Shown piece after piece: positions 12,571 to 28,400 of a stretch of DNA of 32,000 nucleotides. Source of the stretch: Microcystis aeruginosa NIES-2549 (GTDB taxonomy: Bacteria > Cyanobacteriota > Cyanobacteriia > Cyanobacteriales > Microcystaceae). Under the pieces are notes generated by a model. The model saw nothing but the letters and a program-made list of their open reading frames with translations, had not been told where the DNA came from and searched no databases. Each line of letters begins with the position of its first letter. The stretch's first letter is position 1. A program made the translations under genes and the position numbers. The DNA lies in NCBI RefSeq assembly GCF_000981785.2, contig NZ_CP011304.1, positions 1,560,001 through 1,592,000 of the forward strand, in the 5' to 3' direction.

Positions 12571-12768
12571 TTTTTAATTGTTTCTCCTTGATTTTTTTGC
12601 TCAATTAAGTTAAGGATTTCGTCCTACTTCCCACCCAAGACAGATGTAGAGAGACTATTTGAGTATTATGATTATTCCTCTTGATAAAATGTCGTCAAGG
12701 ATACAATCTAGCAGAAACTAATCTGGATACTTTTATACAGAATGTAAAATTTTTTACGAGAGGACATC

Positions 12769-13524
12769 ATGACCACTACCACCCCTGTGATTGTTAGTGA
12801 AGGTTTACGCAAAAGTTACGGCTCTTTAGAGGTACTCAAAGGAGTTACAGGCACTCTTTATCAAGGGGACGTGGTATCGGTAATCGGTCCCTCTGGCTGC
12901 GGCAAAAGTACCTTTTTACGCTGTCTCAATCGTTTGGAAACAATTAACGGCGGCCGCTTGGAGGTGATGGGAATTGACATCTCTTCCCCGAAGTTAAATC
13001 AATCGGTCCTCCGCAAGTTACGCAGCCGGGTAAGTATGGTGTTTCAACACTTTAATCTTTTTCCCCATCTCACCGTTTTACAAAACTTGATGTTGGCCCC
13101 CAAGCAAGTGTTACACCACCCGGAAAATGAGGCTAAAGATACGGCAATTCATTATCTGGAAAAGGTGGGTTTGGCCCCAAAAGCCGATGTTTATCCCGAC
13201 CAATTATCGGGAGGACAAAAACAACGGGTGGCGATCGCTCGCAGTCTCTGCATGAAACCAGAGGTGATTTTATTTGATGAACCCACTTCGGCCCTGGATC
13301 CGGAATTAGTCGGGGAAGTGTTAAACGTTATGCGTCAATTGGCCGATGAGGGGATGACTATGGTAGTCGTCACCCACGAAATGCAGTTCGCCAAGGAAGT
13401 CTCTAACAAGGTTTTGTTCTTTAATCAAGGTGTCATCGAAGAAGCAGGTGATCCCGACACTTTCTTTAATAATCCCCACAGCGAGCGCTTACAAGCCTTT
13501 TTAAGTCGCATCAATAGTAATTAG
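12769..13524 (+). CDS. amino-acid ABC transporter ATP-binding protein (GlnQ/BgtA-like)
   Basis: It has Walker [10 protein letters not shown], the signature [13 protein letters not shown], Walker [12 protein letters not shown] and an H-loop VVVTHEM. It is divergent from the permease gene. Confidence 0.9.
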
Positions 13525-13559
13525 GGTTGGCTGAAAAAGTTTGTCGGTGGGGTTATAGA

Positions 13560-14330
13560 ATAACCGATTACACCACTTTTTAGCGGAATCTCCTTGGTCA
13601 GCTGTGAACGTGATTGACATCCTCGCCGCCCTAAAAGTGCGGCGATTCCTAAACCTCACGATTTAAGTTTCTGCTTCCACCACCGTCGCATACCACAGTT
13701 AAAAAACCATGTACTGTCTTACACAGAGTCCACAGACTTTCGCCCCATTTCAGAAGCCCGATTCCGTGTGTCCCACGGTACGTTGACCGCCTATAGCTTC
13801 TTGTACTTGTTGCGCGCGACTTTTTACCCGGCCAAGCTTTTCTGGTCGGAACCCCCTAAGCCGAGTTTTCAAGGTGCTGCGCCGTCCACTTGGTTTTCGA
13901 GACTGGCCTTTTAATTCTAACGTAAAGCCAACCTAGAACGGCGGGGTTTCAGACCCAAAATTTCCGATGAACCAATGCCGCCAGACGGAAATACCCCGAG
14001 GATTTTCGCTGATTGTCGATGACCGAGGACATCGAAAAAGCCGCAATCTGAGCACTGGAGTTGGGAGGCAGTACTTGGGAGAAATTGGCAAAACAGACAG
14101 TAGAGTTGGCTGTATAGTGATCGCTAACCTGATGATCACCGATGGTGTCATTAGTCTCTATAGTCAGCGATTCCCTCTGTAGCGATGTTTTTGATGGTTT
14201 TCTGCTGCGAAACAAGCTATAATGGTCGAAAAGTCAAATTTGAAAAATTTTGCTTCCAACCCTATCGGCGTAAGGATTTCAGGAGTTGGCACCCAGTAGT
14301 ACATTAGCTTTGAATTGCTTTAACTGAGTC
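13560..14330 (-). mobile_element. Decayed IS200/IS605-family (IS1341-type) tnpB relic with an omega-RNA/right-end-like 3' region
   Basis: Minus-strand frames show broken TnpB-like pieces: AENHQ, VIIRLAITIQPT (resembling V.V.P.YTSQTC), RLFRCP....ENPRGISV (resembling R.F.C..CG..DRD.NAA.N) and TVGHTES. The 3' end has GGAATCGCCGCACTTTTAGGGCGGCGAGGATGTCAAT, a hairpin followed by GATGTCAA, as in many tnpB 3' ends. A long subterminal imperfect palindrome lies at 13536-13590. There are many stops and frameshifts. Boundaries are approximate. Confidence 0.45.
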
Positions 14331-14443
14331 TCTGTAAGACTTTCGGCTATAGCTAGTACATTCATAGGGGGAAAGTTTAGTTATGTTCTACTTGGAACAC
14401 AATCAAATTAAATCAACCCTTGCAATTTCATATTGAAGCGACA

Positions 14444-16168
14444 ATGAAAGCAATAACCTCAATTCTTGACACCAGAGCCGAGCAAACCCCCAATCAGTTA
14501 GCCTACATCTTTCTTAAGGATGGTCAAAATCAAGAATCATCCATTGACTACAAAACCTTACAGCAAGAATCAAAGGCGATCGCTGATAGCTTACTTTCTC
14601 TTTGCCGCCAAGGTGATCGCGCTTTATTACTTTATCCCCAAGGTTTAGAATTTATTACAGCTTTTTTGGGGTGTCTATATGCTGGGATTGTTGCGGTTCC
14701 CGCTTACCCACCAAAGCGTAATCAAAAAATGTCTCGATTACTAGCAATTATTGAAGATTCTCGCCCTCAAATTATTCTGACAACCAGTTCACTTGTAGAG
14801 AAAATTAAGTCAACACTTGAATCTTTTTTAGACTTATCAGTAACCAGACTTTTAGTCACAGACAATGTGAATAATAACCAAGACTTTAAATTGCATCTTC
14901 CCAGGATTAGCGGTGATACCCTAGCATTTCTTCAATACACATCAGGTTCAACTGGTGCGCCGAAAGGAGTCATGATTTCCCATGACAACGTTGCCCATAA
15001 TTCTGCTTATATTCAAAAAGCATTTCAACTGACAGGAAAAAGTGTTTCTATGACCTGGTTGCCCAGTTTCCATGACATGGGTTTAATTGATGGTATTATT
15101 CAACCGCTTTATACAGGTTTTTTAGGTGTTGTTATGTCGCCTGAATCTTTTTTAAAAAATCCAATGCTTTGGTTAGAAGCAATTACTAAATATCAAGCTA
15201 CTCATAGCGGCGGTCCAAATTTAGGCTATGAATTATGTGTGCAGAGAATTACGTCTGAACAGCAAGAAATGCTTGATCTCAGTAGTTGGATCACTGCCTA
15301 CAATGGAGCCGAGCCAATACGACGAAAAACGATGGAAAACTTTATTAACAAGTTTCAATCTTCTGGGTTTCAATCTCGATATTTTTATCCCTGTTACGGC
15401 ATGGCAGAAGCCACACTAATGATTTCTGGAGGTAATATCGAAGATGAGCCAGTTTACTTAAATGTTCAATCAGAATCCTTAGAGAATAATCAGGTAGTAG
15501 AAGCGGAGAAAGACAGTAAAAATTATCAGGAACTTGTCGGTTGCGGCCATGTCTGGGAAAATATGGCAGTAAAAATTGTCGATCCTGAAAGTTGTTTAGA
15601 ATGTGATGAAAATCAAGTGGGAGAAATTTGGGTTTCGGGTTCTAGTGTTGCCCAAGGATATTGGCAACAAGAAGAAAAAACGATCGCAACTTTTCAGGCT
15701 AAATTAGCTGATGGGGATCAAGGAAATTTTTTCCGAACAGGCGATTTAGGTTTTAGGCGAGAAGGAGAACTATTTATCACGGGAAGAATCAAAGATGTCA
15801 TCATTATTTGGGGACGAAATCATTACCCCCAAGACGTTGAATATTCTGTACAACAAAGTCATCAGGCTCTGCGTTTAGATTCTGGGGCAGCTTTTACAAT
15901 AGAAGTAGATAATCAAGACAAATTAGTGATTGTTCAGGAAGTAGAGCGTACCTATTTAAGCAAGTTAAATGTCAATGAAGTTTTCTCGGCTATTCGTGAA
16001 GCCGTTGCTCTCCATCATGCCTTACAGGTTTATGCGATCGCATTAATTAAACCCGCAAGTATTCTCAAAACCTCTAGCGGTAAAATTCAACGCCAGGCTT
16101 GTCGTCATGCTTTTCTCACAAACAGGCTGGCGATTGTTGCACAATGGCAACAAAATAAGTTATCATGA
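14444..16168 (+). CDS. fatty acyl-AMP ligase (FAAL)
   Basis: The adenylation core is YTSGSTGAPKGVMISH. The length and layout are FAAL-like (WLPSFHDMGL, GDLGF..GELFITGRIKD, SSGKIQRQACR). It is followed by a free ACP gene. The ATG is at 14444; the track start at 14420 is a TTG. Confidence 0.85.
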   Translation: MKAITSILDTRAEQTPNQLAYIFLKDGQNQESSIDYKTLQQESKAIADSLLSLCRQGDRALLLYPQGLEFITAFLGCLYAGIVAVPAYPPKRNQKMSRLLAIIEDSRPQIILTTSSLVEKIKSTLESFLDLSVTRLLVTDNVNNNQDFKLHLPRISGDTLAFLQYTSGSTGAPKGVMISHDNVAHNSAYIQKAFQLTGKSVSMTWLPSFHDMGLIDGIIQPLYTGFLGVVMSPESFLKNPMLWLEAITKYQATHSGGPNLGYELCVQRITSEQQEMLDLSSWITAYNGAEPIRRKTMENFINKFQSSGFQSRYFYPCYGMAEATLMISGGNIEDEPVYLNVQSESLENNQVVEAEKDSKNYQELVGCGHVWENMAVKIVDPESCLECDENQVGEIWVSGSSVAQGYWQQEEKTIATFQAKLADGDQGNFFRTGDLGFRREGELFITGRIKDVIIIWGRNHYPQDVEYSVQQSHQALRLDSGAAFTIEVDNQDKLVIVQEVERTYLSKLNVNEVFSAIREAVALHHALQVYAIALIKPASILKTSSGKIQRQACRHAFLTNRLAIVAQWQQNKLS

Positions 16169-16215
16169 CAGGTATTTGTTTTTCTTTGCAAATGTTTTGG
16201 TGGTAACTTGTTTTT

Positions 16216-16461
16216 ATGAGTCGAGAAAAAATTGAACAGTGGCTAACAGATAGGCTGACAAGTCTTCTAGGTGTAGATAGGGAAGACATTGATTTAGAAA
16301 AATCTATTTTCACCTATGGACTAGATTCTTCCGTTGCCTTGAGTCTTACTGGCGAGTTGGAAGTCATGCTTGGTTTAGAGCTAGACCCAATTTTATTTTG
16401 GGAATATCCCAAAATTAGTGAATTATCTGAATATTTAGTAGCTGAACTAGCTCAAAAATAG
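16216..16461 (+). CDS. acyl carrier protein (stand-alone)
   Basis: The protein is 81 aa and has the phosphopantetheine attachment motif YGLDSSVAL. Confidence 0.85.
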   Translation: MSREKIEQWLTDRLTSLLGVDREDIDLEKSIFTYGLDSSVALSLTGELEVMLGLELDPILFWEYPKISELSEYLVAELAQK

Positions 16462-16537
16462 GGGTGACTTTAATCATGAATGGGAACAAAGTTTTATTTA
16501 TCCTTTTGATGCAGAATTTCAGGCTAATCCCTATCCT

Positions 16538-17695
16538 GTGTTTGCGCAGCTTCGTCAAGAAGATCCTATCCACAAAAGTATTTTTGGAACATGGATTATT
16601 ACTCGTTATGCCGATGCCCTTACTATTTTAAATGATAAGCGATTCCAAGTAGATAATTTTCCTGAACGCCTTCAGCTAAAAAGTGCCTATCTCAAAGAAG
16701 ATAATCTAGACATTCTTGCACAAACTACTGATAAATGGTTGTTTTTTTTGGAACCACCCGATCATACTCGAATTAAAAATGCACTAATTCCATCCTTTTC
16801 TAGAGCCTCGCTCAATGCTATGCGTCCTAAAATTCAGGCAATTGTTGACGATTTACTGGATAGATTTGCCCCAAGGGGAGAGATGGAAATCATAGCAGAT
16901 TTTGCGACCCCTCTTCCTGCTTTTGCGATTACTAAAATATTAGGTTTACCGATTGAAGATTATCAACAATTAATGCGATGGTCTGCTAAGACCGTTTTCA
17001 TTTTTGATCAACCAGTATCTTTGGAAGAATATAAAGAGCAAAATCAAATTCTCATTGAACATAGAGCCTATTTTGCTCAAAAAGTAGCTGAATATAAAAG
17101 ACAACCAAACGACGGTTTGATCAGCCAGTTAGCTAATTATAAAGATAATATAAATGCCCTAACAGAAGATGAAATAATTAGCACTTCTATTCTGTTAATG
17201 GCGACATCCCAGGAATCAATGAAAGGACTACTGAGTAATGGTCTTTTAGCCCTTTTAAAACACCCACAAAGTTTAGAATATGTAAGACAAAATCCTGGTA
17301 ATATTGAAAATATTGTCGAAGAATTGCTACGTTATGATAGTCCTATTCAGTATGTCTCTCGTCGAGCAATAGAAGACGTTGAGGTTTCAGGAAAAATTAT
17401 TCATCGTGGGGAGTATGTCGTTATCTATCTCGGTGCAGTAAACCATGACCCTGAATACTTTTCTAATCCCCAACAACTGGATTTCAGTCGTCGCAAACCT
17501 AATTTGGGTTTTGGCGGTGGCCTTCACTATTGCATAGGAATGTTTTTAGCCAGGCTTCAAGTGCAAATCGCCCTAAATGCCATGGTGCAACGTTTGCCAG
17601 ATATTTGCCTCAATACAGATAAATTAGACTGGTGCGACAGCAAGATTTCAAGAAGATTAAAAACTCTTCCTGTCAAATTTACTCCTCTTGCTTAA
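16538..17695 (+). CDS. cytochrome P450; the true N-terminus is probably further upstream (see finding)
   Basis: The heme-thiolate loop is FGGGLHYCIGMFLA, with ExxR EELLRY and I-helix-like LLMATSQES. The same frame stays open back to 16451 and encodes YPFDAEFQANPYP, typical of P450 N-termini. It contains no ATG, GTG or TTG before the GTG at 16538. Confidence 0.85.
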   Translation: MFAQLRQEDPIHKSIFGTWIITRYADALTILNDKRFQVDNFPERLQLKSAYLKEDNLDILAQTTDKWLFFLEPPDHTRIKNALIPSFSRASLNAMRPKIQAIVDDLLDRFAPRGEMEIIADFATPLPAFAITKILGLPIEDYQQLMRWSAKTVFIFDQPVSLEEYKEQNQILIEHRAYFAQKVAEYKRQPNDGLISQLANYKDNINALTEDEIISTSILLMATSQESMKGLLSNGLLALLKHPQSLEYVRQNPGNIENIVEELLRYDSPIQYVSRRAIEDVEVSGKIIHRGEYVVIYLGAVNHDPEYFSNPQQLDFSRRKPNLGFGGGLHYCIGMFLARLQVQIALNAMVQRLPDICLNTDKLDWCDSKISRRLKTLPVKFTPLA

Positions 17696-17731
17696 TCTCA
17701 AGGTTAATTTTAAAAAAGCGATCGCTATTTT

Positions 17732-17853
17732 CAGTTAAATAACCTCAGTTCGGGTTAAGGCTATTTTCTTACTCATTCCACAAAAGAATAGGGTTTACAG
17801 CGAACGAGAAAATTAGGGTTTTAGCTTATCCCGAACTCAGGTTAAATAAGCTG
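17732..17853. repeat. MITE-like element: about 30-nt imperfect terminal inverted repeats around a roughly 62-nt core
   Basis: The left arm CAGTTAAATAACCTCAGTTCGGGTTAAGGC pairs with the reverse complement of the right arm, CAGCTTATTTAACCTGAGTTCGGGATAAGC. The core AACCT[C/G]AGTTCGGG[T/A]TAAG is conserved between arms. Confidence 0.5.
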
Positions 17854-17984
17854 TTCATAATTTAAATTGCTTGTTGAGACGAGGCAAGAGGCAACAGTAA
17901 AAGGATTGGAGGAGATTCGGCTGATCATTAAGAATAAGCGGTTTAAATACGTCTTAGCTTAACAGAATAGCGATCGCATTTTTG

Positions 17985-18024
17985 TCATAAATAAGAGCAT
18001 CACCTTTGATAATTAGTGATGCTC
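17985..18024 (-). terminator. Rho-independent terminator downstream of the lectin-like gene
   Basis: A perfect 9-bp stem GAGCATCAC (17995-18003) / GTGATGCTC (18016-18024) is followed on the minus strand by TTATTTAT. Confidence 0.55.
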
Positions 18025-18047
18025 ACTTTAAATGAATTAATTGTTTC

Positions 18048-19256
18048 TTAGGAAATTACTTCAACCGTCCACTCATTGCCAATACCTGTACTCCAAGTGG
18101 TAACACCTTGCTCAGAATCAGGACGATGTAAATAATCGCCTTTCCATGACTTCAATTTGATCTTGTCACCAGCGATCTTCTCCACCGTCCACTCATTGCC
18201 AATACCTGTACTCCAAGTGGTAACACCTTGCTCAGAATCAGGACGATGTAAATAATCTCCCTTCCAAGACTTGAGTTTCAATTTCTTTCCTGTGGATAGA
18301 ATATCCTGCTTGTAAGTTCCGCTAATACTATCAATTCGCAGACCAGTGGGCCCACCGATACTATGCAGTTTAAACTCCAGGGTGTTAGTTCCGACGACAA
18401 ATCCCGTCGAAATTGAAAAACGACTAATCTTTGTCCACCAAGAGCTTAAAGCAACAGGTTTACCCACCGATACCCCGTTAAGCACAATATCAGTAATGTT
18501 GTCATCCACGGAAAGTTCACCGACAATGGAAGCTTCAGAAAAATTGGGTAAAGTAAAGGTGGTTGTATAGCTATAGTTGCCAACCGGACCGTTAGCCGAA
18601 GGTTTTTTAGGGCCAATCCATCGGGCGGTATTGGTATTCGTAACCCAGTTAATTGGTGCTAAATCCTTGTTGGGAGTGGTAACACCTGGAGTTACTGTCC
18701 CCGCCGGATAGGTTGTTAACTTATAGTGGGGGTCGGGAATGCTATCCCCTAAAACCTGACGGGCATCGTCAACCCCCGTATTGTAGAGGTTAGCGATCAC
18801 TCCTGGCGCAGTGGGGACAATTTCCGTTGCTTTAGCAGTAGCAGAATAAGCAATCGTCAACTTGCCAGTGTTATCTGCGTACCATTTAGGATCATCGTTA
18901 TTGACGAAAGAAACTGTGTCTCCCGGTTGTAATTCAAAGCTTTGTTGTTTGCCGCTCACCGTAGATTTTGTGTTGCCCTTGGCATCTTTAATTTCGCCAA
19001 CTAAGGCCCCTGGATTCAAATTGGGATACTTAAGCCCAAATTTTTCATCGTTTTTGTCTCGGACATGACCATTGCCATCCACTGGGGTTTTGTATTTGGC
19101 TAGGCTAGGATCAGATGTTTCAAAGTTAATTAAAGTCCATTGACCTGTTGCCGTCAGGGAGATTGTCACCGTGCTACCGGAATTATTAGCCAGAGCTGGG
19201 GGATTATTAAGCTGGGTAGCCAGTTCTAATTGAGCCAGTCTGAGATGTTGAGACAA
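18048..19256 (-). CDS. multidomain lectin-like protein (PA-IL/LecA-like N-domain, carbohydrate-binding-like middle domain, two 40-aa Trp/Gly-rich C-terminal repeats)
   Basis: In the N-domain, GALVGEI...VSFVNNDDPKWYADNTGKLTI resembles the LecA pattern ...LIYNDVPGTYGNNSGSFSV. The middle region (NLYNTGVDD..DPHYKL...WIGP...GNYSYTTTFTLP...VDDNITDIVLNGV...GTNTLEFKLHS.GGPTGL) resembles domains seen in PEP-CTERM-type secreted proteins. The C-terminus carries KSWKGDYLHRPDSEQGVTTWSTGIGNEWTVE twice. The start is a TTG and no signal peptide is evident. Confidence 0.7.
   Translation of the reverse strand: MSQHLRLAQLELATQLNNPPALANNSGSTVTISLTATGQWTLINFETSDPSLAKYKTPVDGNGHVRDKNDEKFGLKYPNLNPGALVGEIKDAKGNTKSTVSGKQQSFELQPGDTVSFVNNDDPKWYADNTGKLTIAYSATAKATEIVPTAPGVIANLYNTGVDDARQVLGDSIPDPHYKLTTYPAGTVTPGVTTPNKDLAPINWVTNTNTARWIGPKKPSANGPVGNYSYTTTFTLPNFSEASIVGELSVDDNITDIVLNGVSVGKPVALSSWWTKISRFSISTGFVVGTNTLEFKLHSIGGPTGLRIDSISGTYKQDILSTGKKLKLKSWKGDYLHRPDSEQGVTTWSTGIGNEWTVEKIAGDKIKLKSWKGDYLHRPDSEQGVTTWSTGIGNEWTVEVIS
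18055..18294 (-). repeat. Tandem 120-nt duplication inside the lectin-like gene
   Basis: Positions 18064-18137 and 18184-18257 are identical over 74 nt. The flanks are similar but diverged. Confidence 0.9.
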
Positions 19257-19401
19257 GGGAAGCTAAAACCATAAAAACAGAGAACTCGTTTACATTTGAC
19301 GGATAAAGCCAAGGCAGTTATTCCACGCTTCAGCTTGACTGATCCTAAATTATATTGATATAGTAGTCAAGTGTACATGGCCACAGTATATACGAAACTT
19401 A

Positions 19402-22400
19402 ATGATTAAACAGCCCATAGCAATTGTTGGTATGGGATGTCGTTTTCCCGGAGCCAATAATCCTAGTGAATTTTGGGAGATACTCCAAAATGGCGTACAT
19501 ACGATAACTAAAGACCCTATAGATCGCCCTACGCAGATGACAGGTTGGGCGGGATTTCTCGAGGGCATAGATAAATTTGATGCGGCGTTTTTTGGCATTT
19601 CTTCGGAAGAAGCGATCAAGATGGATCCTCAACACAGACTTTTGTTAGAAACCTCTTGGGAAGCCTTAGAAGACGCTGGGCTAGTTCCCGCTAATTTAGC
19701 AGGGACCGATACTGGCGTTTTTATTGGGCTTTCTGGTAGTGAATATCTGAATTTATTAATTGAAGATTCAACCTTTAATACCGCCATTGGAACTCTCGAC
19801 TGTATGTTAGCCAATAGGATTTCTTCCTATTTTGATTTTCACGGTTTAAGTCTAACAATAAATACCGCTTGTTCTTCTGTATTAGTGGCAATAGATCGTG
19901 CCTGTCAAAGCTTATGGAATGAAGACATTTGTTTGGCTTTAGTAGGTGGTACACATCTAACTTTTTCTCCCGTGATTGCCTCTAGATATGTCAATGCGGG
20001 TTTGATTTCTGCCGATGGTTTGTGTAAAACTTTTGATGCTAAAGCGGATGGTTATGTTCGGGGCGAGTGCATCGGAGTCGTTGTCTTAAAACTTCTATCC
20101 CAAGCTCAAGCGGATGGCGATCGCATTTATGCTGTGATTCGGGGGAGTGGCGTTAATCACAATGGTAGTGGTAATGGCTTGACCGCACCCAATATGCAAG
20201 CCCAGATTGCTCTCTTGCAAAAAGTTTATCAACGGGCAGAAATTAATCCCAATTCCATTAATTATATTGAAGCTAACGGTACGGCAACGCCCATTGGAGA
20301 TGCCTTAGAAATGAAGGCATTAGGAACAGTAGTTGGCAAAGATCGAACTGCTGATAATCCCTGTCGGGTGGGCAGTGTAAAAACCAATATTGGTCATACA
20401 GAAGGTGCTTCTGGTATTGCGGGGTTGATTAAAGTTGCTCTTTCCCTCTATCACCGTCAAATACCCCCCACTTTACATTGTCAAGAGCCTAATCCTGCCA
20501 TTCCTTTTGCCAAACTAGGACTAAAAGTACAACAAACTTTGGAAACTTTACCCGAAGAAACAGGGCCAATTCGAGCAGGGGTTAGTTCTTTTAGTCTGGG
20601 GGGAACGAATGCTCATCTGATATTGGAATCAGTCCCGTCTCAAGCAAAAGCTGAACCTAATCTTTCTCCTTTACAAGTTTTTACTCTAACCGCCAAGACT
20701 TCTACTGCTTTACAAGCTTTGGTGCAACGTTATCAATCTTTCCTAGAAGATAACCCTGAAGTCGCTTTGTCCGATATTTGTTTTATGGCTAATACTAGGC
20801 GATCTCAATTCTCCCACCGTCTAGCTATGATCACTGAATCAAAAGAACAATTGCAAGAGCAACTAAATATGATTGTTCGCCAAGAAGCATTATCAAGTGT
20901 ATTCAGTGGACAAGTTATAAGGCAAAAATCCGCACCAATTTGTTTTATTTTTTCTGGAAAAAGCCAGAAACTTAAACTAATTATTAAATCCCTTGCTCAA
21001 AGTCATCCAGCCATCTATTCATTGCTAGAAGAATTGCAACCACTTATTTCTTCTTATTCGACAAGATCATTTTTTCAATTAATAGAAGAAGAAAATTTAG
21101 AAAACCCTTTTCTTAGCCAAGTAGTCAACTTTATCTGTGAATATGCGATGACTCAATTATGGCAATACTGGGGAATAAAACCAGCAATCTGTATAGGTTA
21201 TGGTCTGGGAAATTATGCTGCTTTAGTATTGGCGGGAATTTTAACTGTAGAAGAGGCAATTTCTTTAATCATAGAAGATAAAAACTCTGAATCACCTCCC
21301 AAGTTTCAAGCCGCAAAAATTCCCGTAATTTTACCGATCAGTGGTAAGACAATTAAAATTCATGAAACTATTGACTATAAGCAGTGGCAAAAAGAATTTA
21401 ATGTCAATAACATGAACGCAGAAAATTTACCTAGCCTATTATCAGACTCTAATGTAATTTTGCTAGATCTATGTTCTCTGGAGATCAAAAGTCATGATTA
21501 TCTCAAACAGCTTGATGATTATAACATAAAAAGTTCTGAACAAATAAAAAGTTTTGATTATTTATATTATTTATTTTCCACTTTAATCAAATTCTGGTTA
21601 ATGGGGGTGAAAATTGATTGGTCTAAAGTTTCAAACTATCAACAATGTTATCCTATTTCAGTCCCTACCTATCCCTTTGAGGGTCAATCATACTGGATTG
21701 ATGTATCACCTAAAATACCGAATCAACAAAGCATCCATAATCAAGAGAACTATTTGAAGGGACAACAAAGCAATAATCAAGAGAACTATTTGAATGTAGA
21801 ATTTATCGCTCCTCGTGATAATTTAGAAATGCAATTGACCGAGATTTGGCGAGAAGTTTTAGGAATCCAGACTATCGGAGTCAAAGACAATTTCTTCAAT
21901 TTAGGGGGACAATCTCTGGTGGCGGTCAAGCTATTTGCTCAAATCGAAAAAGTCTTCAAGGTCAATCTACCATTAGTCACCCTTTTCCAAGCTCCAACGG
22001 TTGAGCAAATAGCTAGGATTCTCCGGGAGAAAGCGGTTGAAACTGACCCCCAGACTCACAGCCTTAGACTTGAAAGCCAACTAAATCCTCAGTCTTCTCT
22101 AGTAGCTATGCAGTCGAGTGGCGCGAAAAGACCATTTTTTCTCGTCCCCGGTGGCGGCGGCGGCGAAAATGAATTAATCATCTATGCCAAATTAGTCTAT
22201 CTTTTTGGTCAAGAACGGCCTGTTTATGGATTCCAAGCAAGGGGTTGGGACGGAATCGAAAATCCTCACAATACTGTAGAGGCTATGGCAACCGACTACA
22301 TCAAAGAAATCCGTACCGTCCAACCCGAAGGACCTTATCTTCTCGGAGGTGAATGTATAGGCGGACTTGTCGCGTTGGAAATGGCACAACAGCTAGTCGC

Positions 22401-22875
22401 ACAAGGACAGAAAGTGGGATTATTAGTTTTTCTCGATACACCTGTTCTAACTCTGCCGAGAAAACTCCGCTATCAGGTGGAGAAATTTTTCCAAATTCCA
22501 AGAATTCGCTATCATCTCAGAGAACTCCAATTCTCAGCCAAAGGAGAGAGTCTCACCTATATTTTTAACCAAGCATCAAAGGTGAAGGAAAAGCTGGCAG
22601 AAGACAGCTTCAGTCGCCACCGAAAAAAAGTTGCCAAAAACTACATAAAAATGATTATGCACTACAGACCACAAACCTATTCTGGTGGAATTACCTGGTT
22701 AGTCACTGAAAGTTTTTATCCCAAGGCTCAAAATCAGGGGTGGAACCATCTAGCCAGAGGAGGACTAGAAATTCACCGGATTCCAGGAACTCACGACTCT
22801 TATCTCGGTGACAATGTCGAGACTACGGCTGAAAGGCTTAAAGCTTGCCTTGACGAAGCGCAGGCAGATGATTGA
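19402..22875 (+). CDS. type I PKS-like synthase: KS (Cys-Asn-His) - degenerate AT-sized region - PCP-type carrier - thioesterase (Cys nucleophile)
   Basis: KS motifs are GMGCRFPGA, TACSS (Cys codon 19870-19872), EANGTAT (Asn 20275-20277 where His is expected) and NIGHTEGASG. The AT-like region has FIFSGKSQK and GYGLGNYAA in place of GQGSQ and GHSxGE. A post-AT linker VPTYPFEGQSYWI is present. The carrier motif is FFNLGGQSL (Ser 21913-21915). The TE has FFLVPGGGGG, YGFQARG, LGGECIGG (Cys 22354-22356) and GTHDSY. Confidence 0.9.
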   Translation: MIKQPIAIVGMGCRFPGANNPSEFWEILQNGVHTITKDPIDRPTQMTGWAGFLEGIDKFDAAFFGISSEEAIKMDPQHRLLLETSWEALEDAGLVPANLAGTDTGVFIGLSGSEYLNLLIEDSTFNTAIGTLDCMLANRISSYFDFHGLSLTINTACSSVLVAIDRACQSLWNEDICLALVGGTHLTFSPVIASRYVNAGLISADGLCKTFDAKADGYVRGECIGVVVLKLLSQAQADGDRIYAVIRGSGVNHNGSGNGLTAPNMQAQIALLQKVYQRAEINPNSINYIEANGTATPIGDALEMKALGTVVGKDRTADNPCRVGSVKTNIGHTEGASGIAGLIKVALSLYHRQIPPTLHCQEPNPAIPFAKLGLKVQQTLETLPEETGPIRAGVSSFSLGGTNAHLILESVPSQAKAEPNLSPLQVFTLTAKTSTALQALVQRYQSFLEDNPEVALSDICFMANTRRSQFSHRLAMITESKEQLQEQLNMIVRQEALSSVFSGQVIRQKSAPICFIFSGKSQKLKLIIKSLAQSHPAIYSLLEELQPLISSYSTRSFFQLIEEENLENPFLSQVVNFICEYAMTQLWQYWGIKPAICIGYGLGNYAALVLAGILTVEEAISLIIEDKNSESPPKFQAAKIPVILPISGKTIKIHETIDYKQWQKEFNVNNMNAENLPSLLSDSNVILLDLCSLEIKSHDYLKQLDDYNIKSSEQIKSFDYLYYLFSTLIKFWLMGVKIDWSKVSNYQQCYPISVPTYPFEGQSYWIDVSPKIPNQQSIHNQENYLKGQQSNNQENYLNVEFIAPRDNLEMQLTEIWREVLGIQTIGVKDNFFNLGGQSLVAVKLFAQIEKVFKVNLPLVTLFQAPTVEQIARILREKAVETDPQTHSLRLESQLNPQSSLVAMQSSGAKRPFFLVPGGGGGENELIIYAKLVYLFGQERPVYGFQARGWDGIENPHNTVEAMATDYIKEIRTVQPEGPYLLGGECIGGLVALEMAQQLVAQGQKVGLLVFLDTPVLTLPRKLRYQVEKFFQIPRIRYHLRELQFSAKGESLTYIFNQASKVKEKLAEDSFSRHRKKVAKNYIKMIMHYRPQTYSGGITWLVTESFYPKAQNQGWNHLARGGLEIHRIPGTHDSYLGDNVETTAERLKACLDEAQADD

Positions 22876-22951
22876 AACCCGAATCAAGATATACTCTACC
22901 ACGGCTGGCTTGTCTGAATTCGCCGCCAATATTTTTAATTTTGAATGACTT

Positions 22952-23860
22952 ATGAAGGCTCCAGTGGCTTTTTTTATCTTTAACCGACCTCAACTGACAG
23001 CAAAGGTATTTGAAGGGATTCGTCAGGCCAAACCCAACAAACTGTTTATCATTGCCGACGGTCCGCGCTCCGCTCGACCAGACGACCGCGACAAGTGCGC
23101 TGCCACCCGTGCCGTTGTCAAACAAATCGATTGGGACTGTGAAGTATTCAGGAACTATTCAGAGGTTAATCTAGGCTGCGGACGCAGGGTATCTACAGGT
23201 ATTAGCTGGGTTTTTGAGCAAGTCGAGGAAGCCATCATCCTAGAGGACGACTGCCTCCCCCACCCAACTTTTTTTCCATTTTGCGAACAACTATTGGAGA
23301 AATATAGAAATGAGCCAAAAATAATGAGTATCAGCGGAACTAACTGGTTAGGACAATGGAAATCAGAGCAGCAGAGTTATCATTTTAACTTTTGTGGGGG
23401 CATTTGGGGATGGGCCACTTGGAAAAGAGCTTGGCAAGGCTATGACTATGAGATTAAATTATGGTCAAACCGAAAAATCAGGCAAGAAATTAAAGATTTT
23501 ATCGAGGATGAACAAATATTTAAATGGTACGACCAAGTTTTCTCCCAAGCCTATAGAGGAGAAATTAATACTTGGGACTATCAGTGGATGTTTCAATGCC
23601 TTTTCCACTCAGGATTAGAAGTGGTTCCCTCAGTCAACTTAATTTCTAATATTGGCTTCGGGGAAGAAGCATCCCATACTAAAAACCCCTATGATTTCAG
23701 AAGCAATCTTCCCCAGCACTCTATGTTATTTCCGCTGAAGGAAGCCAAGGAATTAGTAATAGACAGAGAATATGGCAAACAAGTAGTAAAAAAACTTTCT
23801 ATCAATAGCCATCTCCTTGTCAGATTGAAAAATAAAATCAAGAGGTGGTGGGCTGGGTAA
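22952..23860 (+). CDS. GT-A fold glycosyltransferase (GNT-I / HlpA-like family)
   Basis: It has an N-terminal Rossmann-like start (VAFFIFNRPQL), a DxD-type motif ILEDDCLPHPTFF and a length of about 300 aa. It lies 76 nt downstream of the synthase, on the same strand. Confidence 0.65.
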   Translation: MKAPVAFFIFNRPQLTAKVFEGIRQAKPNKLFIIADGPRSARPDDRDKCAATRAVVKQIDWDCEVFRNYSEVNLGCGRRVSTGISWVFEQVEEAIILEDDCLPHPTFFPFCEQLLEKYRNEPKIMSISGTNWLGQWKSEQQSYHFNFCGGIWGWATWKRAWQGYDYEIKLWSNRKIRQEIKDFIEDEQIFKWYDQVFSQAYRGEINTWDYQWMFQCLFHSGLEVVPSVNLISNIGFGEEASHTKNPYDFRSNLPQHSMLFPLKEAKELVIDREYGKQVVKKLSINSHLLVRLKNKIKRWWAG

Positions 23861-24100
23861 GCGCATCTTAACAATCCTTGACAAAATTAACTTTATGTGA
23901 GTTGCTCACCCAGAGTGCGATTCAGGAATATTTGAGTGGAATTTGCCATCTCAATTGTTAAGCAAGAATCGACCAACTGTTAAGATTTCGTAACTATTCT
24001 GATTGACTGGTATCACCTGAAATGCCCACGCGGATCACAAAATTGGCCAATTGTCAATCAGGAGGCTCCGAGGCAGGAGAGGAGACTATTTTTATTTATT

Positions 24101-24143
24101 CTCCCATCTCCCCACTTCCCTACACCCCACACCCCACTTCTCC
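24101..24143. repeat. C-rich heptamer-like tract (complement of the GGGGTGT family)
   Basis: CTCCCATCTCCCCACTTCCCTACACCCCACACCCCACTTCTCC was read directly. It is the opposite-strand version of the 4322-4447 repeat type. Confidence 0.75.
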
Positions 24144-24193
24144 AACAATTGTAAAGAAATGTTACAATTATGCTGTCATAACAGCTTACCATC

Positions 24194-24223
24194 TTGACAG
24201 GAGGGAAAGACAGTGGTTATAGT
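24194..24223 (+). promoter_or_regulatory. Candidate sigma70-type promoter of the RHH/Ycf46/DUF1257 operon
   Basis: TTGACA (24194-24199), an 18-nt spacer and TATAGT (24218-24223) lie about 35 nt upstream of the ATG at 24258. Confidence 0.45.
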
Positions 24224-24257
24224 AAGGACACATACCCGGGTAAACCAATTTAGTGAT

Positions 24258-24608
24258 ATGCAAGACAAGCAAAAAGTCACACTGTACCTTCCCCCTGGAG
24301 TCCATCGTCAACTAAAAATAAGGGCTGCGATCGATGAAGAATCGATGTCAGGGCTGGTGGAGAAAGCGATCGCTTTCTACCTAAAATACCCCGAAAAGGT
24401 AGAAGAAATCGAAGCCGCCGCCTATGGCAAAACCTATCAGGTTCATGTCTGTCCCGAGTGTGATGCCGCGTTAGTAATGAAAGAAGATCGGCTAAGGTCG
24501 ATCAAACGCCAGCCCGGAATAGTCGGCGACGAGTTCCCGCTCGAAGTTCCCGAACCCGTCGGCGCCCAAGCAACCGCAGAGGGAGAAGCAGCCTTAGTTC
24601 CCTGCTAA
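24258..24608 (+). CDS. conserved cyanobacterial protein with an RHH-like N-terminus and a CxxC element (Synechocystis slr0373-like position)
   Basis: KVTLYLPPGVHRQLKIRAAIDEESMSGLVEKAIAFYL resembles a ribbon-helix-helix fold, and a single CPEC motif follows. It lies directly upstream of the ycf46-like gene. The ATG is at 24258. Confidence 0.65.
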   Translation: MQDKQKVTLYLPPGVHRQLKIRAAIDEESMSGLVEKAIAFYLKYPEKVEEIEAAAYGKTYQVHVCPECDAALVMKEDRLRSIKRQPGIVGDEFPLEVPEPVGAQATAEGEAALVPC

Positions 24609-24687
24609 ACTCTCAGTAGTCGAACAAGGCATCTACAGCCATCAGCCGCCCAAGGTCAAAACCGTTACCACAAATAGGGTCGATGTT

Positions 24688-26199
24688 ATGAAAGAAGAGC
24701 TAGAAATTCTCGTCAAGGCTCAGTATCCCCTGATTTACCTCGTCACCTCCGAGGAGGAAAGGGCGGAAGAAGCCATCAGCAAAATAGCCCAACTAAATAC
24801 ACAACATCGACGGGTGTTTGTCTGGACTGTCACCCACGGCATGATCGAACAGGGTCAACCGCGCCAAACCAGTCAACATAATACCGTGTCTCCAGAAGCG
24901 GCGATCGAATGGGTAGTGCGTCAACGGGAAGCGGGCATCTACATCTTCAAAGACCTGCATCCGTTCATCACTTCCGCTCCGGTCACTCGCTGGCTAAGAG
25001 ATGCGATCGCCAGCTTTAAAGGAACCGAAAAAATCATTATTTTAATGTCTCCCCTGCAAGAAGTCCCCATAGAACTAGAGAAAGACGTAGTAGTTCTAGA
25101 TTTTCCCCTGCCGGACATGGGAGAGTTAGATACGGTTCTCTCGCAACACCTAACCAGAAATCAAAATCGTCGTACCACCACAGAGGTCCGGGAAAAACTC
25201 CTGAAAGCGGCCTTGGGTTTAACCAAAGATGAAGCCGAAAAAGTTTACCGGAAAGCCTATGTAAAAGCGAGCAAATTGACGGAAGACGAGGTAGAAATCG
25301 TCCTTTCCGAGAAAAAACAACTGATTCGCCGCAACGGAATTTTAGAATACATTGAAGAGGACGAGACCATCAATGCCGTCGGCGGTCTGGAAGAATTAAA
25401 AAAATGGTTAAAACAGCGCTCAAACGCCTTTACAGAAAGAGCCAGAGGTTACGGACTCCCCCAACCGAAAGGGATGCTAATTTTAGGAGTACCCGGCTGT
25501 GGTAAGTCCTTAATCGCTAAAACCACCTCGCGTCTCTGGAGTTTACCGCTCCTGCGCTTAGATATGGGACGGGTTTACGATGGTTCCATGGTGGGACGGT
25601 CCGAGGCTAACCTGCGTAATGCCTTAAAAACTGCCGAATCCATCTCTCCGGCCATTCTTTTCATCGATGAATTAGATAAAGCTTTTGCCGGTGGCACGGG
25701 ATCCGCCGATTCCGATGGGGGAACCTCTAGCCGCATCTTCGGCTCCTTCCTGACTTGGATGCAGGAAAAAACCTCGCCCGTCTTCGTCATGGCCACAGCT
25801 AACCGGATTGAACGGCTACCCGGGGAATTTCTCCGTAAGGGGCGCTTCGATGAAATCTTCTTTGTCGATTTGCCCAATTCCGAAGAAAGACAAGATATCT
25901 TTAATATTCACCTGACTAAACGACGCTCCGACATTTCTCGCTTCGATTTGGAGCAGTTAGCCAAGGTATCCGATGGGTTTTCCGGTGCGGAAATAGAACA
26001 GGCGCTGATTGCCGCCATGTATGAGGCCTTCGCCCAGGATCGCGAATTCACGCAATTAGACATTATTGCGGCGATTAAGGCGACTCTGCCCCTATCTCGC
26101 ACCATGACCGAACAGGTAACGGCCCTGCGTGATTGGGCCAGACAACGCGCCCGACCTGCTTCGGCCTCCGTCGCTGAGTACCAGCGATTGGAGTTCTAA
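24688..26199 (+). CDS. ycf46: AAA+ ATPase Ycf46 family
   Basis: The protein is 503 aa, with the N-terminal domain YPLIYLVTSEEERAE, Walker A GVPGCGKSL, Walker B ILFIDELDK and a second region of homology ATANR...RKGRFDEIFFVDLP. This architecture is typical of cyanobacterial and plastid Ycf46. Confidence 0.85.
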   Translation: MKEELEILVKAQYPLIYLVTSEEERAEEAISKIAQLNTQHRRVFVWTVTHGMIEQGQPRQTSQHNTVSPEAAIEWVVRQREAGIYIFKDLHPFITSAPVTRWLRDAIASFKGTEKIIILMSPLQEVPIELEKDVVVLDFPLPDMGELDTVLSQHLTRNQNRRTTTEVREKLLKAALGLTKDEAEKVYRKAYVKASKLTEDEVEIVLSEKKQLIRRNGILEYIEEDETINAVGGLEELKKWLKQRSNAFTERARGYGLPQPKGMLILGVPGCGKSLIAKTTSRLWSLPLLRLDMGRVYDGSMVGRSEANLRNALKTAESISPAILFIDELDKAFAGGTGSADSDGGTSSRIFGSFLTWMQEKTSPVFVMATANRIERLPGEFLRKGRFDEIFFVDLPNSEERQDIFNIHLTKRRSDISRFDLEQLAKVSDGFSGAEIEQALIAAMYEAFAQDREFTQLDIIAAIKATLPLSRTMTEQVTALRDWARQRARPASASVAEYQRLEF

Positions 26200-26333
26200 C
26201 AGACTTTCGCCCGCTCCCAACGGGATGAAAGGCTAGTTCTCAGGGACTAGCAATGCCTCGCAAAGCCGCTTGGCGGCACTCTTTAACTCTCAATCTGTTG
26301 TTGTTGATTCTTATCTACAAAGAGGAAATTCCA

Positions 26334-26687
26334 ATGTCTCATTTTAGCACTCTCCGGACCAAAATCACCGATGCCGAAATCCTCAAAGCTTCTCTCCGCG
26401 ACCTCGGTATTAGCGTAAAAACCGAAGCTGATGTTCGTGGTTACAACGGTCAACGGGTTCGCTCCGACATCGTTGCTGTTCTCGATGGCGAATATGATCT
26501 CGGTTGGTCTCGCAATACCGACGGCAGTTTCGATTTAATCGCCGACCTCTGGGGTGTAGCCAAAAAACACAATCAAACCGAATTGATCAACTCGATTAAC
26601 CAAAAATACGCTGTGAACAAAACCCTATCCGAAGTGAAACAGCGCGGTCTGCAAAACGCTAACGTTAAGCTAGTCGTTCAAAGCTAA
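26334..26687 (+). CDS. DUF1257 (Ycf35-like) protein
   Basis: MSHFSTLRTKITDAEILKASLRDLG...DLGWSRNTDGSFDLIADLWGV matches my memory of the Ycf35/DUF1257 family. An RBS AGAGGAAA lies upstream of the ATG at 26334. Confidence 0.8.
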   Translation: MSHFSTLRTKITDAEILKASLRDLGISVKTEADVRGYNGQRVRSDIVAVLDGEYDLGWSRNTDGSFDLIADLWGVAKKHNQTELINSINQKYAVNKTLSEVKQRGLQNANVKLVVQS

Positions 26688-26713
26688 GATTTACAGCGCG
26701 TTCCCAAGCCTAG

Positions 26714-26742
26714 GGGTTGACCAGTTCGGTTAACCCTTTTTT
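26714..26742 (+). terminator. Rho-independent terminator after the DUF1257 gene
   Basis: The stem GGGTTGACC / GGTTAACCC (9 bp, one G.U) has a loop AGTTC and is followed by TTTTTT. Confidence 0.6.
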
Positions 26743-26787
26743 CTGTCTGTAGGGTATGTTAAGAATAGTAAAATTCACTTGACAAAA

Positions 26788-27435
26788 ATGCTCCGACCCG
26801 AAGAAAGAACTAAACTCGATCCGACCAAAGACAGCGATTTTTATGCTTTTCCCCGCTTCGTCACCCACGTGGATGAGGGTTTTATCGATCAATTAACCGC
26901 TCTCTACCGAGAGATATTATCGCCGAATACACGCATTTTAGACCTGATGAGCAGCTGGGTGTCCCATTTACCGGAGGAGATGGAATTTGAGCATATCGAA
27001 GGTCACGGGATGAATGGGGAGGAGTTAGCCAAAAATCCCCGCTTGCATAGTTATTTTGTCCAGGACCTGAATGCACAGCCAAAATTGCCCCTAGAGGATA
27101 GTTCTTTTGATGCGGTGTTAATCACGGTGTCGGTGCAGTATTTGCAGTATCCAGAGGCGATTTTTGCGGAACTGTATCGCATTTTAAAGCCTAATGGTCT
27201 GGTGGTGGTCAGTTTTTCCAATCGGATGTTTTACCAAAAAGCGATCGCTGCTTGGCGCGATAATAGCGATTTAGGCCGGGTGGCCCTAGTGAAATCCTAT
27301 TTTAAATCGGTGGCGGGATTTAGGGAAGTACAGGCGATCGTTCGTGCTGCTACTACCCCCAGTTTCCTACAAATGTTAGGAATTATGGTCGCCGATCCCT
27401 TCTATGCAGTGATAGGGAAAAAGAATCCTCTCTAG
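26788..27435 (+). CDS. class I SAM-dependent methyltransferase (Methyltransf_11-like)
   Basis: It carries the motif I-like ILDLMSSWVSHL, then DAVLITVSVQYL and LKPNGLVVVSFSN. The ATG is at 26788; the track start is a TTG. Confidence 0.8.
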   Translation: MLRPEERTKLDPTKDSDFYAFPRFVTHVDEGFIDQLTALYREILSPNTRILDLMSSWVSHLPEEMEFEHIEGHGMNGEELAKNPRLHSYFVQDLNAQPKLPLEDSSFDAVLITVSVQYLQYPEAIFAELYRILKPNGLVVVSFSNRMFYQKAIAAWRDNSDLGRVALVKSYFKSVAGFREVQAIVRAATTPSFLQMLGIMVADPFYAVIGKKNPL

Positions 27436-27449
27436 GATTATAGTCATCG

Positions 27450-27656
27450 TTAACACTCAGAGGGCCATTCCGATAATACCTGTAATTCGTTGGAATAGCC
27501 TATTTGATCTCTCCTTGTTTGTTGTTCACTTGAGTTGTCAAGTAATAAATCACGATGGCGACTTGGTGAAATAGCAATAATTAAAGCTGGACGCAGTTTT
27601 CCTGATTTCAAGTCTGCTTGAGGAAAACGAATTAGAACAATATCACCTGGTTTCAT
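27450..27656 (-). pseudogene. truncated PemK/MazF-family toxin remnant
   Basis: The N-terminal 40 aa, MKPGDIVLIRFPQADLKSGKLRPALIIAISPSRHRDLLL, are typical of MazF/PemK. The sequence then loses similarity and stops at 68 aa, whereas full-length toxins are about 110 aa or more. Only 14 nt separate it from the neighbouring gene. Confidence 0.6.
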
Positions 27657-28025: not shown

Positions 28026-28343
28026 CTGCCATCAATGGGCATGGTGCGTTCCCCAAAATCGATCGCTTTGTAGCAGGACTTGCATTAGGGAACGCACCCT
28101 ACGACTGCCATCAATGGGCATGGTGCGTTCCCCAAAATCGATCGCTTTGTAGCAGGACTTGCATTAGGGAACGCACCCTACGACTGCCATCAATGGGCAT
28201 GGTGCGTTCCCCAAAATCGATCGCTTTGTAGCAGGACTTGCATTAGGGAACGCACCCTACGACTGCCATCAATGGGCATGGTGCGTTCCCAAAAATCGAT
28301 CACTGGAGTAATAGGACTTGCATTAGGGAACGCACCCTACGGC
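28026..28343 (+). repeat. Tandem array of four 79-nt units, each with an 11-bp inverted repeat GGTGCGTTCCC / GGGAACGCACC
   Basis: Units start at 28026, 28105, 28184 and 28263. The first three are identical. The last has a diverged loop and is followed by a T8 run (28346-28353). Confidence 0.9.
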
Positions 28344-28400
28344 TGTTTTTTTTCTGACTTCAGCAGACTAACGGCTAAACTCACCTGCGTGCGGAGCGCA

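Follow-up and report, generated by a model that had tools for sequence, protein, structure and literature searches.

Does a cysteine in place of the usual nucleophilic serine of a terminal thioesterase (TE) betray an unusual way of releasing a product? The question is raised by a gene of Microcystis aeruginosa NIES-2549 that encodes a polyketide synthase (PKS)-like protein, in which a carrier domain is followed by a TE whose nucleophile elbow reads GECIG instead of GxSxG. The gene lies in a stretch of 32,000 nucleotides on the forward strand of contig NZ_CP011304.1 (positions 1,560,001 to 1,592,000), hereafter the window, whose own numbering is used for all coordinates unless another sequence is named. 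A first-pass annotation of this DNA had described the carrier as being of the nonribosomal peptide synthetase (NRPS) type, had read the nucleophile as Cys and had suggested that release may involve strained-ring formation or, with an adjacent glycosyltransferase (GT)-like gene in mind, a Pks13-like transfer to a sugar. The residues that it named proved correct, and its inference of exotic chemistry is not supported. As detailed below, the TE is an ordinary member of a large natural clade of Cys-TEs, and it is a cassette that recombination has joined to a cyanobacterial synthase. Cys-TEs as such are not new, and no novel chemistry has been demonstrated for this one; the most interesting result is the natural exchange of one TE for another, of which both alleles and a relic have been preserved.

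The thioesterase, its catalytic residues and its relatives

The gene translates as one uninterrupted open reading frame (ORF) in which Pfam profiles delimit a ketosynthase (KS; N and C halves of ketoacyl-synt at residues 4-360, followed by the KS-AT linker), the trace of a degenerate acyltransferase (AT; here AT0), a peptidyl carrier protein (PCP) and the TE, and no condensation (C) or adenylation (A) domain (Table 1). The NRPS character of the carrier was borne out. Its motif FFNLGGQSL, which begins at residue 831 (nt 21892) and provides the attachment serine Ser838, is preceded by an NRPS-style lead-in (FIAPRDxLE...IW..VLG), and the best solved matches are all NRPS PCPs, namely TycC3 (E 4e-17), PvdL, LgrA and SrfA-C. 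In an AlphaFold2 model of the PCP-TE didomain (predicted local distance difference test, pLDDT, 90.7; predicted template modelling score, pTM, 0.87), Ser838 stands at the start of helix 2.

Residues ~879-1157 are identified as a genuine and functional type I TE of an NRPS-derived clade, with Cys as its nucleophile, by the full set of features of such enzymes: the PF00975 profile (71.8 bits against a curated cut-off of 26.4, residues 911-1148), the nucleophile elbow, the catalytic Asp and His, a lid insertion and a PCP immediately upstream. Cys985 lies within LLGGECIGG and His1131 within GTHDSY, as the first-pass annotation had it; the third triad residue, absent from that annotation, is Asp1012, within FLDTP and at Cys+27.

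Three lines of evidence, namely an alignment, a structural model and the fold neighbours of that model, place Cys985 at the nucleophile position. The best match of the PCP-TE region, both in sequence (E 1.3e-28) and in fold (E 1.4e-21), is AB3403 of Acinetobacter baumannii (ABBFA_003403; PDB 4ZXH/4ZXI), and the phmmer alignment to PDB 4ZXH sets GGECIGG opposite GGWCFGG and LDT opposite IDT. The nucleophile of AB3403 is a cysteine, and its triad Asp occupies the usual position (PMC11298585). In the AlphaFold2 model, Cys985 (model residue 191) sits between strand 185-190 and helix 193-206, that is, in the nucleophile elbow, with Asp1012 immediately following the next strand, His1131 following the last one and a long four-helix lid at model residues 224-293. 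A fold search of the PDB with this model returned 4ZXH at the top, followed by EntF, the Sky TE, ObiF1, SulM, SrfA-C and NocB; these matches after 4ZXH are all NRPS type I TEs, ObiF standing at rank 8 and SulM at rank 10, and the Pks13 TE is a mid-rank match only, not preferred over other TEs. A sequence search of all PDB chains with the TE alone had the cyclising TEs 7CRN/7DXO (E 4e-20) among its best matches, gave AB3403 at E 2e-12 and returned no match to the TEs of ObiF or SulM at E <= 1. Taken together, these data predict a triad of the conventional EntF/AB3403 type.

The Cys codon itself is hardly in doubt. The 90%-identity cluster of the window allele comprises 108 sequences from NCBI, JGI, ENA and Logan, including the complete genome of M. 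aeruginosa NIES-2549 (AKE63899.1), and GECIGG was read in all 14 sampled members that span the elbow, as well as in two further loci, L001 and L016 (Microcystis sp. LSC13-02, 98%). A sequencing or assembly error that masks a true Ser codon (TCT or AGT) is ruled out by this agreement of independent assemblies; nothing was found in its favour, Cys is the rule across the clade, and we regard the chance of such an error as negligible.

The relatives of the window TE share the signature G-[E/D]-C-x-G-G plus G-x-H-x-[S/T]-Y. In a word-indexed search, each of the 23 closest TE relatives in which a motif scan detected an elbow carries Cys (G-E/D/G-C-x-G-G), usually as GECxGG together with GxHxSY; two further sequences in the same range escaped the motif scan. 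An exhaustive phmmer/HMMER search over 1.84 billion representatives gave 34,343 matches at E <= 0.001; the stricter limit of E <= 1e-30 left 1037 cluster representatives. Of the 150 representatives listed, 141 were analysed; among their 171 TE copies, 139 elbows have Cys and 23 have Ser, so that the earlier remark that Cys-TEs are rare fails in this TE's own lineage. An acidic residue at -1, the Cys and a Tyr at His+3 occur together in 52 of the 111 copies with a complete triad, and the combination never occurs with Ser; the window TE has both Glu984 and Tyr1134. The nearest relatives are mostly NRPS termination modules (C-A-PCP-TE) spread over many phyla. AB3403 falls in a second Cys group, with an aromatic residue at -1; for the G-E-C-x-G-G group we found neither a solved structure nor a characterised enzyme. 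The survey exposes a large clade (>1000 cluster representatives) of which, judged by its motifs, the window TE is an ordinary member, not a Ser-to-Cys oddity.

Recombination at the carrier end of the synthase

Full-length searches placed the protein in a cyanobacterial family of ~57 proteins with the same KS-AT0-PCP-TE architecture, found in Microcystis, Cylindrospermopsis, Dolichospermum, Snowella, Umezakia and Aphanothece. Within this family Cys is the minority state: an alignment of the TE region, from which the elbows were read, has 54 Ser and 6 Cys, and the triad Asp and His are kept in 57 of the 61 aligned TEs. A family member of 49% overall identity (P0043) has a TE of the Ser subgroup (AGYSFGSL) and nevertheless reads GGFCFGSL, which suggests an independent Ser-to-Cys point mutation in that protein.

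The window TE has another history. Compared with the window protein, its Microcystis homologue P0003 is 98% identical in the KS, 96% in AT0, 82% in the PCP and only 32% in the TE, and a point change from Ser to Cys was rejected because the whole TE differs to this extent from the Ser-TE of otherwise 96-98% identical proteins. The same break is seen in DNA. Sister alleles of Microcystis with a Ser-TE were recovered from three separate metagenomes (L002-L004), and L002 is 96-97% identical to the window upstream (11036-17696), 90% identical across KS-AT0-PCP (19417-22007) and 97% identical from the start of the downstream gene (22952-27537), while blastn finds no homology across 22008-22951. The segment missing from L002 is matched by another source: a metagenomic contig (L015) holding the 3' end of an NRPS gene (C-A-methyltransferase-PCP-TE) and its downstream gene is collinear with window 22033-23849, at 88.9% identity over 22033-22983 and 89.8% over 22979-23849 (blastn). 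Homology to the Ser-TE alleles thus stops, and homology to the NRPS contig starts, within a few tens of nucleotides at the C-terminal end of the PCP (Table 1). These sequence comparisons show that recombination at the end of the PCP attached the TE, as a cassette, to a cyanobacterial KS-AT0-PCP synthase.

The Ser alleles retain a trace of the exchange. A lid segment that is native to the Cys-TE clade in the alignment persists as a non-coding relic after the stop codon of the Ser-TE gene in L002-L004 (88.75% identity over 80 nt to L002 13410-13489, 94.8% over a 58-nt core), so these Ser alleles descend from an ancestor with a Cys-TE at this locus. The Ser-TE that came into them is typical of the family, with ~70% identity to Dolichospermum-type TEs. 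In a distant family member (P0362, from locus L014), the KS is 49% and the TE 67% identical to the window, which implies that the Cys-TE cassette was combined with the synthase family more than once or moved between its members. Furthermore, synonymous divergence between Microcystis alleles is uneven by domain (KS 0.39, PCP 0.05), and the synthase gene is therefore a mosaic of recombination. An exact stretch of 11 residues common to Cys- and Ser-TEs (EMAQQLVAQGQ) was considered as a patch of gene conversion and rejected, being the consensus of the wider TE family. For the TE, the ratio of nonsynonymous to synonymous substitution rates (dN/dS) comes to 0.23 in a comparison with another PKS allele, 0.38 with the NRPS copy and 0.22 with L014, and it is 0.2-0.4 in all four synthase domains except the short PCP (0.61, with very few changes); by this measure the TE is under purifying selection in its present context.

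The cassette is linked to a second gene. The gene 3' of the synthase encodes a predicted GT-A fold (AlphaFold2 pLDDT 92.2; fold matches to GnT-I, PDB 1FOA, as the best, POMGnT1 and SpsA), with no match in Pfam, NCBIfam or PDB sequence searches, and it is 89.8% identical in DNA to the gene 3' of the NRPS TE in L015. This collinearity means that the GT-like gene either came in with the TE or remained beside it, and sequence comparison thereby shows that the cassette brought, or kept, a gene from an NRPS locus. None of the orthologous clusters examined in Cylindrospermopsis, Dolichospermum and Aphanothece has the gene (a contig of Umezakia ends inside the cluster and is less informative in this respect). 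The gene belongs to a family with >8000 cyanobacterial homologues, and NCBI calls its relatives glycosyltransferase family 2 or HlpA-like; a literature search for 'hemolytic protein HlpA' found nothing. By its distribution the GT-like gene is linked to the TE cassette and not to the PKS. The adjacent gene had been taken in the first-pass annotation as a clue to a sugar acceptor: the glycosyltransferase fold stands with confidence, whereas the clue itself is weakened by a gene that travels with the TE, is missing from the examined orthologous clusters and has this many homologues.

An L015-type NRPS donor was not found in a scan of species-representative genomes, the same scan that found the window allele in Microcystis sp. 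LSC13-02. The NRPS clusters with the closest Cys-TE (L015 1492-14216 and L007) have, in addition, genes for radical SAM/SPASM enzymes, a carrier and a stand-alone A domain. Both belong to an uncharacterised type of NRPS cluster, and the final gene of L015 is the GnT-I-like one seen in the window.

This exchange between an NRPS and a PKS is a clean natural counterpart of the release-domain swaps at the carrier end that engineers attempt, and one in which the donor-like and the alternative allele can be compared.

The host cluster

Table 1. Position of the synthase, its domains, the junction and the neighbouring genes in the window
Feature	Coordinates	Strand	Basis
Type I PKS-like, putatively off-loading synthase, KS - degenerate AT - PCP - TE, 1157 aa	19402..22875	+	Pfam; orthologue family P0001-P0057
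Ketosynthase, Cys157 - Asn292 - His332; first His of HGTGT replaced (window reads EANGTAT)	19411..20481	+	Pfam ketoacyl-synt N/C
AT remnant (AT0); GYGLGNYAA in place of GHSxGEYAA, conserved Arg gone	20944..21273	+	Sub-threshold Pfam Acyl_transf_1
NRPS-type PCP, FFNLGGQSL, Ser838 codon 21913-21915	21832..22020	+	Pfam PP-binding, E 6.7e-15 (residues 811-873)
Recombination junction, C-terminal end of PCP; Ser-TE homology stops at 22007, L015 homology starts at 22033	22008..22032	.	blastn
Type I TE, Cys-nucleophile clade; Cys985 (TGT, 22354-22356), Asp1012 (GAT, 22435-22437), His1131 (CAC, 22792-22794)	22132..22845	+	Pfam PF00975
TE lid segment with homologue persisting as non-coding relic 3' of the Ser-TE gene in L002-L004	22576..22655	+	blastn
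Predicted GT-A glycosyltransferase, GnT-I-like, 302 aa, invariant E98-D99-D100, linked to TE cassette	22952..23860	+	AlphaFold2 and fold search
Fatty acyl-AMP ligase, 582 aa, cluster priming enzyme	14420..16168	+	Pfam AMP-binding, E 3.3e-66, and DIP2-like C-terminal domain
Stand-alone acyl carrier protein, 81 aa, ACP-style YGLDSS motif, unlike the PCP of the synthase	16216..16461	+	ORF; 81-aa PP-binding genes at same position in L002-L006 and L010
Cytochrome P450, BioI-like; 5' end frameshifted, intact ORF restarts at GTG 16538	16476..17695	+	Pfam p450
Lectin-like protein, 402 aa, two near-identical beta-trefoil (DUF569) repeats	18048..19256	-	Weak DUF569 match

Upstream of the synthase lie a fatty acyl-AMP ligase (FAAL), a stand-alone acyl carrier protein (ACP), a cytochrome P450 and, on the opposite strand, a gene for a lectin-like protein. 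The FAAL, which matches the NCBIfam fatty-acid--AMP ligase models with 390-458 bits, is the sole adenylating enzyme of the cluster and holds the same position in L002, L005, L006, L010, L012, L013 and L014. Among solved structures the P450 matches BioI best (PDB 3EJB, E 2.5e-70), with PksS behind it. BioI is an enzyme that binds fatty acyl-ACP, oxidises it and breaks a C-C bond; by analogy, the likeness suggests that the window P450 acts by oxidation on the carrier, possibly with cleavage of the chain. Against the 97%-identical L002, a DNA alignment places a 1-nt deletion in a T/A run at ~16499-16500, near codon 9 of the P450 gene, which shifts the frame after ~8 codons and could be a genuine lesion or an error in a homopolymer.

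The lectin-like gene sits on a 1.7-kb segment (17697-19416, blastn boundaries) that is absent from L002. Homologues with ~80% amino acid identity occur in the same cluster of Cylindrospermopsis (L005), Dolichospermum (L010, two copies) and Umezakia (L011), and a PDB sequence search gave no solved relative; from this recurrence the protein looks like a true component of the cluster.

The order FAAL-ACP-P450-synthase is conserved in five genera, and the KS is ~80% identical across orders. Between the window (14443-21909) and the Cylindrospermopsis raciborskii locus L005, the FAAL, ACP, P450, lectin-like gene and KS-AT0 are 81-88% identical in DNA. Such identity, far above expectation between orders, points to horizontal transfer. 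The set of FAAL, ACP, BioI-like P450, KS-dead AT-PCP-TE synthase and lectin-like protein, common to Microcystis and Cylindrospermopsis, defines an orphan cluster of bloom-forming cyanobacteria, of which no description was found in the literature, including that on Microcystis and the FAAL reviews.

Two loci depart from the common plan. In L014 (5815-14752), two fatty-acid desaturases between FAAL and ACP replace the P450. A Nostoc sp. locus (L013, 679-12154) combines a FAAL-ACP fusion, a P450, a KS(Cys-Asn-Asn)-active AT-ACP-TE protein whose elbow reads GHCFGG, a family 1 glycosyltransferase (GT1) and a DevBC-like exporter; from its gene content, a glycolipid pathway is plausible there. Single strains also show damage. 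In the Ser-TE alleles L002-L004 the FAAL gene has an in-frame TAA (L002 ~7540) where the window has GAA (Glu280, 15257-15259) and is split into pieces of 271 and 299 residues, and in this lineage the cluster is probably inactive.

A putative route of release and its alternatives

The domains upstream of the TE bear on how a chain would reach it. The KS family keeps the active-site Cys and the second His throughout, while the position of the first His (residue 292), counted over the family and comparison sequences, is His in ~48, Gln in 8 and Asn in 7; Asn is found in the window's group and in Cylindrospermopsis, Gln in several other members. Loss of the HGTGT His is the defining mark of non-elongating KS0 domains, for which, where they are terminal, a role in release or transfer has been proposed (PMC4661987). 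The window KS, with its Cys kept and this His gone, fits that definition, and it does so as a member of a family most of which retains the His. Like the KS0 modules of trans-AT and algal PKSs, it is terminal and adjoins a release domain (PMC4661987); it differs from them in that only ~1/5 of its family lose the His, and in that the KS is followed by a near full-length degenerate AT rather than a short docking remnant. That AT scores 28.5 bits with Acyl_transf_1 (cut-off 32.7) over residues 515-624, covering 114 of 319 profile positions. The position of its nucleophilic Ser is Gly in nearly all family members (GYGxGNYAA), and the conserved Arg is likewise absent family-wide; judged by this distribution, the dead AT is a conserved trait of the family and not a recent lesion. 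The linker between AT0 and PCP carries at ~21739-21810 a 12-residue duplication (NQENYL...NQENYL), of which P0003 has one copy fewer, so that linker length is polymorphic.

We consider it probable that the NRPS-derived Cys-TE, grafted onto this KS-AT0-PCP synthase, forms an S-acyl-Cys985 intermediate and thereby releases a tailored fatty acyl chain. The FAAL would adenylate a fatty acid and load it onto the stand-alone ACP, where the BioI-like P450 would oxidise the bound chain. Cys157 of the KS would then take the chain and hand it to the PCP without extension, or with at most a single extension, should the PCP be loaded by a housekeeping malonyl transferase; a non-extending KS is proposed because the window allele has no decarboxylation His and the neighbouring AT neither Ser nor Arg. 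Cys985, activated by His1131 and Asp1012, would next take the chain from the PCP by transthioesterification, and the S-acyl enzyme would be resolved by water or by an oxygen nucleophile to yield a free oxidised fatty acid, a simple ester or a lactone. The domain identities, triad, clade membership, graft and purifying selection set out above underlie this scheme; the succession of the steps, a KS that does not elongate and the kind of product set free are added to it as proposals.

Several observations weigh against this reading. Most orthologues keep a full Cys-His-His triad in the KS, so that family members may extend the chain with malonyl loaded in trans, and Asn292 may be a defect of recent origin. 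Signs of decay occur in single strains (the frameshift in the window P450 and the nonsense codon in the FAAL of the Ser-TE sister alleles), and some genomes may carry an inactive cluster. Thioester acyl-enzymes surpass oxoesters in reactivity (PMC6668435), which fits capture by a weak nucleophile as well as hydrolysis. Finally, the literature yielded no product of the cluster, no paper on it and no characterised G-E-C-x-G-G enzyme.

The outcomes proposed for a Cys-TE can be weighed against the same data. A lactone or ester could arise if a hydroxyl installed by the P450, or a hydroxyl of another molecule, attacked the thioester acyl-enzyme to give a macrolactone or an estolide-type ester. The P450 always adjoins the ACP, the lid is long, cyclising TEs are among the best matches of the TE, and a Cys nucleophile, in ObiF as in an engineered Pik TE, favours attack by a hydroxyl over attack by water (PMC6668435). 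Yet a Ser-TE is present at the same locus and in most orthologues, so the pathway does not require Cys; no sequence feature separates cyclisation from hydrolysis; and the nearest solved relative of the P450 cleaves C-C bonds rather than performing simple hydroxylation. We regard this outcome as possible but unlikely. Formation of a strained ring, either a beta-lactone or a beta-lactam, as by ObiF1 and SulM (PDB 6N8E, 8W2D), is highly improbable. These TEs share with the window a GxCxG elbow, a thioester acyl-enzyme and a position 3' of an NRPS PCP, and both stand in the fold search, as all NRPS TEs do. Their triad Asp, however, stands on a later strand, with a Gly in ObiF1 at Cys+27 (PMC6668435, PMC11298585), where the window has Asp1012; SulM reads Q-C-N where the window reads E-C-I; and they act on a beta-functionalised aminoacyl peptide, whereas the window cluster is predicted to carry a fatty-acid-derived chain and has no A domain for a beta-functionalised amino acid. 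The interchange with a Ser-TE and the failure to match either TE in sequence argue in the same direction, and the strained-ring proposal of the first-pass annotation is not supported.

Its other proposal, a Pks13-like transfer of the chain to a sugar or polyol that the GT-A enzyme makes or modifies, would yield a glycolipid. The confident GT-A fold with its invariant EDD motif, the linkage of this gene to the same TE type in two different synthetase contexts and the gene content of the distant Nostoc locus speak for it, and the FadD32-Pks13 system of mycolic acid condensation resembles the cluster in that a FAAL primes a type I PKS ending in carrier-TE. The linkage is explained by co-transfer with the TE, however, and the GT-like gene is a member of a very large family and is itself missing from the other genera's clusters examined. 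Pks13 has a fused N-terminal ACP, an active carboxyacyl-loading AT, a Cys-His-His KS and a Ser-TE that transfers to trehalose, whereas the window has a separate ACP, an AT without Ser or Arg, a Cys-Asn-His KS and a PCP-type carrier; the AT that should load the second substrate is dead, the Pks13 TE is preferred neither as a fold nor as a sequence match, and the NCBIfam equivalog for Pks13 (NF040607) reaches 560 bits, over the KS region only, against a cut-off of 2100, which places the synthase outside that family. Transfer to a sugar has no specific support and is distinctly unlikely. It is also improbable, and somewhat more so, that the cluster is decaying in Microcystis and the chimeric enzyme is a functionless leftover in which the Cys has no bearing on chemistry. 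The Asn in the KS and the dead AT of the window allele, the lesions in P450 and FAAL, the frequent insertions and deletions at the locus and an insertion sequence element inside the Cylindrospermopsis cluster are what such decay would leave. The window, however, has an uninterrupted synthase ORF, several of the members sampled from its 108-sequence cluster are full-length, dN/dS argues for constraint in all domains but the short PCP, the KS is well conserved across orders, and the dead AT belongs to the whole family.

Because other strains, the source of GCE60639.1 among them, have a Ser-TE at this Microcystis locus, the identity of the nucleophile is not obviously tied to the chemistry of the pathway. 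A bolder idea, which we hold to be rather unlikely, is that the two versions form a natural chemotype switch, in which a release cassette of ~0.95 kb with breakpoints at the PCP end alone changes how the chain exits. If so, the same tailored chain might leave, for example, as a free acid from one allele and as an ester, a lactone or a glycosyl-linked lipid from the other, and TEs of the G-E-C-x-G-G/H-x-S-Y type would be a mobile release module with a chemistry of its own, moving between NRPSs and PKSs together with a GnT-I-like glycosyltransferase.

Among known systems, the upstream part of the probable off-loading route is closest to FAAL/ACP cassettes. In bacterial polyyne and JamABC-type alkyne pathways, which are cassettes of on-carrier tailoring, and in the cyanobacterial olefin synthase, a FAAL loads a dedicated ACP, the tethered chain is tailored and a KS or TE takes over. 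Pathways of this kind have been described (PMC11837247, PMC9828172). They pass the chain to an active elongating PKS or to a stand-alone hydrolase, whereas the window has KS-AT0-PCP-TE without a working AT; the variant L014, with its two desaturases, resembles them in its tailoring enzymes too. For the downstream part the nearest system is AB3403, in which an NRPS-type PCP is likewise followed by a Cys type I TE with its triad Asp after the next strand, and whose product is likewise not known (PMC10510592). AB3403 differs in being a C-A-PCP-TE NRPS and in its elbow, G-W-C-F-G-G, as compared with G-E-C-I-G-G and H-D-S-Y in the window.

Elsewhere in the window, four tandem units of 79 bp with 96% identity lie at 28026-28345, each with an inverted repeat (GGTGCGTTCCC...GGGAACGCACC), and single copies of the unit occur in L001.

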